Below, piece by piece: positions 31,010-34,102 of a stretch of 64,000 nt of DNA. The notes under the pieces were generated by a model. The model ran no database searches. It saw only the letters and a program-made list of their open reading frames with translations, and had not been told where the DNA came from. Numbering within the stretch: position 1 is the stretch's first letter; every line of letters starts with the position of its first letter. This stretch comes from Escherichia coli (lineage in GTDB: Bacteria; Pseudomonadota; Gammaproteobacteria; Enterobacterales; Enterobacteriaceae). Made by a program: the position numbers and the translations under genes. The DNA lies in assembly GCF_003334335.1 (NCBI RefSeq), contig NZ_QOWQ01000007.1, one strand, 5' to 3'.

Positions 31010-31010
31010 A

Positions 31011-31111
<101 letters not shown>

Positions 31112-31201: not shown

Positions 31202-32572
31202 ATGAAAAAATTAACCTGCTTTAAAGCCTATGATATTCGCGGGAAATTAGGCGAAGAACTGAATGAAGATATCGCCTGGCGCATTGGTCGCGCCTATGGC
31301 GAATTTCTCAAACCGAAAACCATTGTGTTAGGCGGTGATGTCCGTCTCACCAGCGAAACCTTAAAACTGGCGCTGGCAAAAGGTTTACAGGATGCGGGCG
31401 TTGACGTGCTGGATATTGGTATGTCCGGCACCGAAGAGATCTATTTCGCCACGTTCCATCTCGGCGTGGATGGCGGCATTGAAGTTACCGCCAGCCATAA
31501 TCCGATGGATTATAACGGCATGAAGCTGGTTCGCGAGGGGGCTCGCCCGATCAGCGGAGATACCGGACTGCGCGACGTCCAGCGTCTGGCTGAAGCCAAC
31601 GACTTTCCTCCCGTCGATGAAACCAAACGCGGTCGCTATCAGCAAATCAACCTGCGTGACGCTTACGTTGATCACCTGTTCGGTTATATCAATGTCAAAA
31701 ACCTCACGCCGCTCAAGCTGGTGATTAACTCCGGGAATGGCGCAGCGGGTCCGGTGGTGGACGCCATTGAAGCCCGCTTTAAAGCCCTTGGCGCACCCGT
31801 GGAATTAATCAAAGTGCACAACACGCCGAACGGCAATTTCCCCAACGGTATTCCTAACCCGCTACTGCCGGAATGCCGCGACGACACCCGCAATGCGGTC
31901 ATCAAACACGGCGCGGATATGGGCATTGCCTTTGATGGCGATTTTGACCGCTGCTTCCTGTTTGACGAAAAAGGGCAGTTTATCGAAGGCTACTACATTG
32001 TCGGCCTGCTGGCAGAAGCGTTCCTCGAAAAAAATCCCGGCGCGAAGATCATCCACGATCCACGTCTCTCCTGGAATACCGTTGATGTGGTGACTGCCGC
32101 TGGCGGCACGCCGGTGATGTCGAAAACCGGACACGCCTTTATTAAAGAACGTATGCGCAAGGAAGACGCCATCTACGGTGGCGAAATGAGCGCCCACCAT
32201 TACTTCCGTGATTTCGCTTACTGCGACAGCGGCATGATCCCGTGGCTGCTGGTCGCCGAACTGGTGTGCCTGAAAGATAAAACGCTGGGCGAACTGGTAC
32301 GCGACCGGATGGCGGCGTTTCCGGCAAGCGGTGAGATCAACAGCAAACTGGCGCAACCCGTTGAGGCGATTAACCGCGTGGAACAGCATTTTAGCCGTGA
32401 GGCGCTGGCGGTGGATCGCACCGATGGCATCAGCATGACCTTTGCCGACTGGCGCTTTAACCTGCGCACCTCCAATACCGAACCGGTGGTGCGCCTGAAT
32501 GTGGAATCGCGCGGTGATGTGCCGCTGATGGAAGCGCGAACGCGAACTCTGCTGACGTTGCTGAACGAGTAA
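31202..32572 (+). CDS. cpsG: Phosphomannomutase (colanic acid copy)
   Basis: Start at ATG 31202 ([14 protein letters not shown]...) giving 456 aa; active-site 'TASHNP'. Confidence 0.93.
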
Positions 32573-32582
32573 TGTCATTACT

Positions 32583-32678
32583 TTCCCCCTCACCCTGACG
32601 CTCTACTGCCTGCGGAGAGAAGTGAGCACGGAACTTTCTTCTCCCCCTCGCCCCTTTGGGGAGAGGGCCGGGGTGAGG
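32583..32678. repeat. GC-rich nested palindromic intergenic element (boxC-like) between cpsG and wcaJ
   Basis: 'ttccccctcaccc' and 'ttctccccctcgccc' direct repeats plus inverted 'ggggtgaggggcgagg'; family assignment from memory only. Confidence 0.4.
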
Positions 32679-32707
32679 GGCGAGGCGACAATAGAACAGG
32701 AACAACG

Positions 32708-34102
32708 ATGACAAATCTAAAAAAGCGCGAGCGAGCGAAAACCAATGCATCGTTAATCTCTATGGTGCAACGCTTTTCAGATATCACCATCATGTTTGCC
32801 GGACTATGGCTGGTTTGCGAAGTCAGCGGACTGTCATTCCTCTACATGCACCTGTTGGTGGCGCTGATTACGCTGGTGGTGTTCCAGATGCTGGGCGGCA
32901 TCACCGATTTTTATCGCTCATGGCGCGGTGTTCGGGCAGCGACAGAATTTGCCCTGTTGCTACAAAACTGGACCTTAAGCGTGATTTTCAGCGCCGGACT
33001 GGTGGCGTTCAACAATGATTTCGACACGCAACTGAAAATCTGGCTGGCGTGGTATGGGCTGACCAGTATCGGACTGGTGGTTTGCCGTTCATGTATTCGT
33101 ATTGGGGCGGGCTGGCTGCGTAATCATGGCTATAACAAGCGCATGGTCGCCGTAGCGGGGGATTTAGCCGCCGGACAAATGCTGATGGAGAGCTTCCGTA
33201 ATCAGCCGTGGTTAGGGTTTGAAGTGGTGGGGGTTTACCACGACCCGAAACCGGGCGGCGTTTCTAACGACTGGGCGGGCAATCTTCAACAGCTGGTCGA
33301 GGACGCGAAAGCGGGCAAGATTCATAACGTCTATATCGCGATGCAAATGTGCGACGGCGCGCGAGTGAAAAAACTGGTCCATCAATTGGCGGACACCACC
33401 TGTTCGGTGTTGCTGATCCCCGATGTCTTTACCTTCAACATTCTCCATTCACGTCTTGAAGAGATGAACGGCGTTCCGGTGGTGCCGCTTTACGACACGC
33501 CGCTTTCCGGGGTTAACCGCCTGCTCAAACGTGCGGAAGACATTGTGCTGGCGACGCTTATTCTGCTGCTGATCTCCCCGGTGCTGTGCTGTATTGCGCT
33601 GGCGGTGAAACTCAGTTCACCAGGGCCGGTTATTTTCCGCCAGACTCGCTATGGCATGGATGGCAAACCGATCAAAGTGTGGAAGTTCCGTTCGATGAAA
33701 GTGATGGAGAACGACAAAGTGGTGACTCAGGCGACGCAGAACGATCCGCGCGTCACCAAAGTGGGGAACTTTCTGCGCCGCACCTCGCTGGATGAACTGC
33801 CGCAGTTTATCAATGTGCTGACCGGGGGGATGTCGATTGTGGGGCCACGTCCGCACGCAGTAGCGCATAACGAACAGTATCGCCAGCTCATTGAAGGCTA
33901 CATGCTGCGCCATAAAGTGAAACCGGGCATTACTGGCTGGGCGCAGATTAACGGCTGGCGCGGCGAAACCGACACGCTGGAGAAAATGGAAAAACGCGTC
34001 GAGTTCGACCTTGAGTACATCCGCGAATGGAGCGTCTGGTTCGATATCAAAATCGTTTTCCTGACGGTGTTCAAAGGTTTCGTTAACAAAGCGGCATATT
34101 GA
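32708..34102 (+). CDS. wcaJ: Undecaprenyl-phosphate glucose-1-phosphate transferase WcaJ
   Basis: 464 aa; N-terminal TM segments and C-terminal sugar-transferase domain ('VGPRPHAV'). Confidence 0.93.
   Translation: MTNLKKRERAKTNASLISMVQRFSDITIMFAGLWLVCEVSGLSFLYMHLLVALITLVVFQMLGGITDFYRSWRGVRAATEFALLLQNWTLSVIFSAGLVAFNNDFDTQLKIWLAWYGLTSIGLVVCRSCIRIGAGWLRNHGYNKRMVAVAGDLAAGQMLMESFRNQPWLGFEVVGVYHDPKPGGVSNDWAGNLQQLVEDAKAGKIHNVYIAMQMCDGARVKKLVHQLADTTCSVLLIPDVFTFNILHSRLEEMNGVPVVPLYDTPLSGVNRLLKRAEDIVLATLILLLISPVLCCIALAVKLSSPGPVIFRQTRYGMDGKPIKVWKFRSMKVMENDKVVTQATQNDPRVTKVGNFLRRTSLDELPQFINVLTGGMSIVGPRPHAVAHNEQYRQLIEGYMLRHKVKPGITGWAQINGWRGETDTLEKMEKRVEFDLEYIREWSVWFDIKIVFLTVFKGFVNKAAY

Follow-up and report, generated by a model that had tools for sequence, protein, structure and literature searches.

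A BoxC (PIT/TMECO) repeat and its probable decayed partner in the cpsG-wcaJ spacer of Escherichia coli, at a site that carries a simple hairpin in most strains

REP sequences shield upstream mRNA against 3' exonucleases. For a second family of palindromic repeats, BoxC, we know of no mRNA-stabilising effect that has been shown and of no association with TnpA-REP, and to our knowledge no function has been assigned to the family since the 1990s; the papers of Hoyne and Maher, in which the same elements are called PIT, appeared in 2000 and 2002. A stem-loop lying before the initiating transferase gene of the E. coli K30 group 1 capsule cluster, was reportedly described by Rahn and Whitfield in 2003 as an attenuator that cuts downstream transcription.

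The element earlier named BoxC (Bachellier and colleagues) and PIT (Hoyne and Maher) is also known as TMECO, the triplex motif of E. coli, and its consensus reads CCCTCNCCC N3-6 GGGNGAGGG N3 GGGNGAGGG, in which the second loop is TTA in type A and CCG in type B units (Holder et al. 2015, PMC4666352). According to the same work, 23 TMECOs are present in K-12 and 29 in O26:H11, type A and type B units are joined as palindromic pairs at five K-12 sites, and TMECO loci display a raised variability, with palindromic pairs collapsing to simple hairpins (PMC4666352). A length of 56 bp is given in the literature for BoxC (PMC2267715).

The DNA analysed here, called the window throughout, is a stretch of 64,000 nucleotides from E. 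coli in which cpsG ends with the codons GAG TAA (stop codon TAA, 32570-32572) and the ATG of wcaJ starts at 32708. Both gene names are taken from the annotated records of K-12 MG1655 and O26:H11 11368, whose flanks are identical or near-identical to those of the window. The 135-bp spacer between the two genes is 100% identical to that of O26:H11 11368 and of many other strains, and the element that it contains has no coding capacity. The original prediction had quoted three repeats from this spacer, and all three strings were located in the window, ttccccctcaccc at 32583-32595, ttctccccctcgccc at 32639-32653 and ggggtgaggggcgagg at 32670-32685, the last one running 7 nt beyond position 32678, where the element had then been made to end. 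The features of the spacer are the following.

32573..32707, + strand: cpsG-wcaJ intercistronic spacer, long allele, 135 bp, bounded by the cpsG stop and the wcaJ start
32585..32622, - strand: decayed inverted type-A-like unit (CCCCCTCACCC, TGA, CGCTCTAC ... GGAGAGAAG), as aligned with intact inverted units elsewhere
32586..32597, + strand: 5' arm of the predicted outer stem, pairing with 32669-32680 in the MFE structure; corresponds in position to the CCCTTACCC arm in the short allele
32626..32681, + strand: 56-bp BoxC unit, the extent of similarity with the copies upstream of yagE and in the araA-araD, phnP-yjdP and lldD-trmL spacers
32645..32680, + strand: intact TMECO core, type B 'mm', with an exact consensus match and a 36-mer identical to K-12 no. 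3 and entry 391
32645-32653, + strand: block 1 of the TMECO core, CCCTCGCCC, followed by loop 1, CTTTG
32659-32667, + strand: block 2 of the TMECO core, GGGAGAGGG, followed by loop 2, CCG
32669..32680, + strand: 3' arm of the predicted outer stem, overlapping TMECO block 3
32671-32679, + strand: block 3 of the TMECO core, GGGTGAGGG, followed by G
32695..32710, + strand: wcaJ ribosome-binding region (ACAGGAACAACG) and ATG, outside the hairpin, conserved in sequence across species

The comparison of this spacer with the described TMECOs leaves little room for doubt about the family. The consensus is matched exactly at 32645-32679 on the + strand, this match is the only one in the window when both strands are scanned, and none was obtained in 100 shuffles; the 24-mer core likewise occurs once in the 64-kb window, with 0 occurrences expected from 100 shuffles. 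The second loop is CCG (32668-32670) and the unit is therefore of type B. Furthermore, the 36-mer spanning 32645-32680 is letter-for-letter that of K-12 TMECO no. 3, listed as 'type B mm' (Table 1, PMC4666352), and that of entry 391 (Table S8, PMC4666352; NC_013361 2875141-2875106), whose position falls within the cpsG-wcaJ spacer of O26:H11 11368. As the consensus is matched, the K-12 no. 3 sequence is reproduced and entry 391 sits at the same locus, both this copy and its family are already catalogued, and the family name given in the original prediction, boxC-like, was the right one.

The other genomic copies that had been anticipated were found in large numbers. BLAST searches against 5426 complete E. 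coli genomes returned 28083 places, spread over 4611 genomes; at BLAST sensitivity the median is 6 detectable places per genome and the maximum 15. Matches at other loci span positions 54-109 of the spacer (56 nt, 32626-32681 of the window) with 85-91% identity, and dispersed copies were fetched at four loci, upstream of yagE and in the araA-araD, phnP-yjdP and lldD-trmL spacers. The element of the window is also intergenic, as expected for BoxC, since it lies between the cpsG stop at 32572 and the wcaJ start at 32708. All the defining features of BoxC/PIT/TMECO that can be assessed in silico, namely consensus, loop type, intergenic location, dispersed copies and unit length, are thus present at this locus.

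The left half of the palindrome (32585-32622) does not conform to the strict consensus and gave no BLAST match elsewhere in the 5426 complete E. coli genomes searched. It lines up with the intact inverted type-A units of phnP-yjdP and lldD-trmL, two loci at which such a unit (CCCCCTCACCC TAA CCCTCTCCCC nnn GGGG(A/C)GAGGGG) precedes a type-B unit, and also with the orthologous spacers of Kluyvera, Enterobacter and Buttiauxella. These alignments led us to prefer a decayed inverted unit for the left half over a decayed BoxC copy in direct (tandem) orientation, the reading considered at first. The same alignments change the meaning of the 'direct repeats' of the original prediction: the strings do exist, and a repeat search returned 32584-32595 and 32642-32653 as a direct pair, but they are better read as the outer arm of the decayed inverted BoxC unit and block 1 of the intact unit. 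In the left unit the inner blocks are decayed, but the outer block (32587-32595) has stayed intact. It pairs with block 3 of the unit to its right, a pairing predicted to be the outer stem of the 'nested palindrome'. The repeat search returned four nested inverted pairs, among them those at 32586-32604 and 32662-32680, at 32644-32654 and 32670-32680, and at 32646-32655 and 32676-32685.

We therefore regard the feature as almost certainly a BoxC repeat (PIT, TMECO) in the common 'palindromic pair' form, with an intact type-B unit on the + strand and a decayed type-A-like unit inverted to its left, the two filling the cpsG-wcaJ spacer of the colanic-acid operon. Beyond the defining features, it shares with the described elements the 36-mer of K-12 no. 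3 and probably the inverted A/B arrangement, which the family often shows without being bound to it. It departs from them in nothing essential; the left partner is decayed here and the E. coli locus has a second, dominant allele consisting of a simple hairpin.

REP/BIME palindromes resemble the element in being short GC-rich palindromic repeats of intra-operon spacers that are co-transcribed with the operon. However, they belong to another sequence family, as the arms of BoxC are strictly pyrimidine or purine and are accompanied by a third purine block, and a REP motif of the GCCGGATGCGGCG type is absent from 32573-32707. A comparison of the Rfam 15 covariance models with positions 31500-33800 (E up to 10) returned only two chance-level matches to eukaryotic lncRNAs, with E of at least 2 and scores far under the gathering thresholds. 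The element is neither a REP/BIME nor an intrinsic terminator, and it is neither a MITE nor a member of an Rfam family.

A BIME-like stretch is nevertheless found nearby. At 192 nt, the cpsB-cpsG spacer of the window is longer than its 104-nt K-12 counterpart, and the extra 88 bp (31010-31100) consist of a REP (GTCGGATGCGGCGTGAACGCCTTATCCAACCTAC) facing an inverted REP (GTAGTCCTGATAAGACGCGGCAGCGTCGCATCAGG) and bounded by the repeat ACGTCGCATCAGG. With a BIME in cpsB-cpsG and a BoxC in cpsG-wcaJ, two adjacent cps spacers thus hold strain-variable palindromes of different families. In the araBAD operon, the araA-araD spacer (strain 2013C-3513, L094 300-467) is another intra-operon spacer holding both REP-like and BoxC families, the BoxC unit coming straight after a REP-like sequence (GCCTGATGCGACGCTGACGCGTCTTATCTGGCCTAC ... 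GCCGGATAAG).

The predicted folding of the spacer RNA was compared with that of dinucleotide shuffles. The + strand transcript reached -59.0 kcal/mol whereas the mean of the shuffles was -45.4 kcal/mol (z -3.76), and only 1 of 200 shuffles folded as well; the - strand gave -56.6 kcal/mol (z -2.31). The nested hairpin was kept in fold contexts of 135, 235 and 335 nt. These values bear out the stable stem-loop that had been claimed just upstream of wcaJ. Neither of the two outcomes that would have spoken against the original prediction, the lack of a stable fold and the lack of further genomic copies, is therefore seen. Two further structures were observed in this region. A G-T-rich stem of 10 pairs (TGACGTTGCTGAACGAGTAATGTCA, 32553-32577, + strand) extends across the cpsG stop codon, with TTACTTTCCC after it; it was flagged as terminator-like and recurs in longer folds, and is probably weak or incidental. 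In addition, GGGGAGAGGGCCGGGGTGAGGGG (32658-32680, + strand, and so also in the mRNA) corresponds to the canonical G-quadruplex motif, with four runs of at least 3 G and loops of 1-7 nt; formation of a G4 in the DNA oligonucleotide was argued against from NMR data (Holder 2015, PMC4666352).

To describe the junction in the species, the 150-nt coding flanks alone were used as a query against the 5426 complete E. coli genomes. The cpsG-wcaJ junction was present in 4639 of them, and two classes of spacer account for exactly this number: a short K-12-type spacer of 54/55 nt in 4130 genomes (89%) and a long spacer of 134/135 nt in 509 (11%). The short allele is a plain 10-bp hairpin, CCCTTACCC-cactgc-GGGTAAGGG, of -17.1 kcal/mol. 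We asked whether simple deletions could turn the long allele into the short one and rejected this, because a MAFFT alignment of the two requires three gaps together with many substitutions, and nothing in the long allele corresponds to CCCTTACCCCACTGC. With no route of precise excision and CCCTTACCCCACTGC unmatched, the two forms are therefore distinct alleles and not excision products.

The long allele is near-invariant, with 0-1 differences between strains that are 2-4% apart over their 850-nt flanks. Two variants were nevertheless found. In strain E69 (L003 1374-1500), a 127-nt form has lost GGGCGAGG, which destroys block 3, together with one C of the C-run. In NT1N25 (L087 851-984), a 134-nt form is one G short in the GGGG run of block 2. 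Both deletions lie in G/C runs or short direct repeats, which fits slippage. Since two very different alleles coexist in E. coli without known phenotype, the details of the long form are likely to be close to neutral.

The same junction was then considered outside E. coli. A WcaJ scan of a species-representative genome collection yielded 80 loci, in 74 of which both gene ends could be placed, with spacers of 39-357 nt. A GC-rich hairpin with pyrimidine/purine arms of the CCCTC/GAGGG type is found in nearly all these spacers (about 70 species of Enterobacteriaceae; typical locus positions about 1340-1500) and, in the spacers that were read closely, it ends about 20-26 nt ahead of the wcaJ ATG. 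Simple hairpins are carried by E. whittamii, Salmonella arizonae, Citrobacter, Leclercia, Lelliottia and Kosakonia, and full single or paired TMECO-like units by Enterobacter, Kluyvera, Buttiauxella, Lelliottia and others. Sixty-one of 73 species' spacers fold with z below -2 (median -3.1), and the sense strand folds more stably than its complement in 51 spacers and less stably in 20, a modest preference that takes no account of the kinship of the species.

In 13 related sequences of Escherichia, Salmonella and Citrobacter, the 10-pair stem is 97.6% paired, whereas slid registers reach at most 66%. Compensatory changes occur at 3 pairs of the same 13 sequences (C-G to U-A, A-U to G-C and U-A to C-G), with a covariation score reached by 0 of 500 shuffles, although a DNA palindrome can keep its arms matched by template-switch repair without selection on the RNA. 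On these comparisons, a hairpin is kept at this position across the Enterobacteriaceae, and the BoxC pair of the window represents one state of the site. A search of the searchable literature for a described cpsG-wcaJ stem-loop returned nothing relevant. It should be noted that in two species the spacer is expanded, to 357 nt (L053 1144-1500) and 247 nt (L027 1254-1500), and contains three or four tandem copies of a unit with TMECO-like blocks, of which GGGCCGGGGAGAGGGGGAGCGTTTA(G/A)CCTCCTTCC(C/T)CGCA(A/C)AAGGGACCGGGGCTGCTTA(G/C)CAGA in L053 is an example. These two expanded spacers suggest that the palindromes of the wcaJ spacer may amplify in place.

Taken together, the locus as a whole is best explained as a BoxC pair that may provide a boundary at the RNA level and a source of instability at the DNA level, a reading to which we give a probability of about 0.85. 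Its RNA part, a structured intercistronic boundary, is put forward tentatively, at somewhat short of even odds. The element would be transcribed within the polycistronic cps mRNA, and the transcript would fold into a long nested hairpin of -53 to -59 kcal/mol ending about 22-27 nt before the wcaJ start and leaving the ribosome-binding site free. The BoxC pair may be a repeat with a tendency to form structure that occupies a site under selection for a hairpin, and the long hairpin would most likely act like the simple hairpin that it replaces. Such a boundary would be of the REP type, a barrier to 3'-to-5' exonucleases or a processing mark that could affect mRNA stability, and not a switch of wcaJ translation. 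At the DNA level, the single strand can fold as a hairpin or as a purine-motif triplex and so may promote slippage, deletion and recombination, a mechanism suggested by the polymorphism described above and by the population data of Holder and colleagues; a folding-prone single strand fits both the coexistence of long and short spacers and the small deletions observed. The hairpin/triplex itself was characterised in vitro for the identical 36-mer, the 'type B mm' oligonucleotide, by CD, NMR and melting, with a Tm of about 70 C (Holder 2015, PMC4666352).

The same biophysical data, together with the exact TMECO match, can also be taken to mean that the element acts on DNA only, the G-rich strand forming a triplex (or H-DNA, or a G-quadruplex, for which the canonical motif at 32658-32680 is available) during replication or transcription and stalling polymerases, which would create a deletion and recombination hotspot and make the RNA hairpin incidental. 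The link between TMECO loci and local variability (Holder 2015, PMC4666352) agrees with this, as do the sequences around the spacer. Indeed, between the window and K-12 there are zero SNPs over 32177-33056 (about 745 bp of coding flank) but the spacer is wholly different, and divergence rises to about 2% further out. When 14 E. coli strains were compared, no SNP in the flanks consistently distinguished long from short alleles, and near-flank haplotypes are common to both. A recombination hotspot at the spacer is suggested by these data, from a sample of 14 strains that is small and a region that adjoins the O-antigen recombination hotspot, which could alone explain the mixed haplotypes. By contrast, in vivo DMS footprinting did not detect the triplex, and addition of the complementary strand led to a duplex (Holder 2015, PMC4666352). 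Moreover, the cross-species covariation concerns Watson-Crick pairs only, and many species hold a simple hairpin without the third block. We thus consider an action on DNA only to be unlikely, although its chance is not a small one, and we keep the BoxC pair acting as an RNA boundary and unstable as DNA as the preferred reading.

A role of the hairpin in the control of wcaJ, the gene of the initiating glucose-1-phosphate transferase, had been proposed in the original prediction, as a modulation of its translation or of mRNA processing. In such a reading the hairpin would either tune the initiation of translation or serve as an intra-operon transcription attenuator. The presence of a hairpin just upstream of the wcaJ ribosome-binding site in most of the roughly 70 species despite sequence turnover speaks for such a role, and so do its spacing of about 20-26 nt to the ATG in the closely read spacers, the compensatory changes and the better folding of the sense strand. 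The K30 and Klebsiella group 1 capsule attenuator is reportedly a comparable case, that is, a stable stem-loop in a Wzy-dependent polysaccharide operon, just before the gene of an initiating sugar-phosphate transferase; it is said, however, to follow wzc and to reduce downstream transcription, whereas the cpsG-wcaJ element shows no terminator features in the scan.

Several results disagree with a control of wcaJ. The Shine-Dalgarno sequence and AUG of wcaJ are unpaired in the MFE structure of the spacer alone and have a mean unpaired probability of about 0.6 in longer contexts; since they are largely unpaired in the predicted folds, a direct occlusion of wcaJ translation is unlikely. A promoter and terminator scan detected neither at the element on either strand. 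The stem does not qualify as an intrinsic terminator, being followed by CGACAATAGAACAGG and not by a U-tract, and no U-tract follows it on the other strand. Alleles of -17 and -59 kcal/mol also coexist within one species. Hoyne and Maher are cited as having found PIT elements inactive as promoters and as terminators and without effect in vivo (in Holder et al. 2015, PMC4666352). The available evidence is mostly against the proposed role, which we hold to be unlikely.

We give a similarly low weight to a broader proposal, in which the hairpin would be a functional RNA of the colanic-acid operon conserved across the Enterobacteriaceae, acting by processing, stability or attenuation on the ratio between the GDP-mannose/fucose precursor genes and the initiating transferase, and BoxC/TMECO units would be expanded versions of such hairpins, produced by palindrome-templated growth at their sites and not independent repeats. 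If true, this would provide both an origin and a role for BoxC.

A recent MITE-like insertion of the long spacer into an empty site would account for a dispersed multi-copy family and for its presence or absence at cpsG-wcaJ. However, the short allele does not represent an empty site, nor is there any sign of precise excision, of a target-site duplication or of terminal inverted repeats beyond the palindrome itself. Related BoxC units occupy the orthologous spacer of Enterobacter, Kluyvera, Buttiauxella and Lelliottia. In addition, no association with transposons, phages or plasmids was reported for TMECO (Holder 2015, PMC4666352), and only 15 of the 28083 BLAST places are on plasmids. In the lack of a target duplication or an empty site, the insertion was rejected as largely refuted, and it is very improbable. 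Finally, the view of the palindrome as a chance product of GC-rich sequence, which has nothing more than the general GC-richness of the spacer in its favour, can be set aside, because the predicted fold is stable (z -3.76), homologous copies exist by the thousand and 0 of 100 shuffles contained the pattern.

The preferred reading, a BoxC pair with a possible RNA boundary and an unstable DNA, adds little as a discovery, given that the BoxC family has been known since the 1990s, that the 36-mer has been biophysically characterised and that this very copy stands in a published table. Modestly new are the exact 89:11 split of the spacer forms in E. coli and the position-conserved hairpin ahead of wcaJ across the Enterobacteriaceae, with its compensatory changes. 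The two E. coli alleles amount to a natural experiment, in which one operon-internal site between near-identical flanks is filled by a 10-bp hairpin in the one case and by a 97-bp BoxC pair in the other, while a hairpin is kept across the family, and the locus is thus suited to a direct test of the effect of BoxC on mRNA or genome stability.
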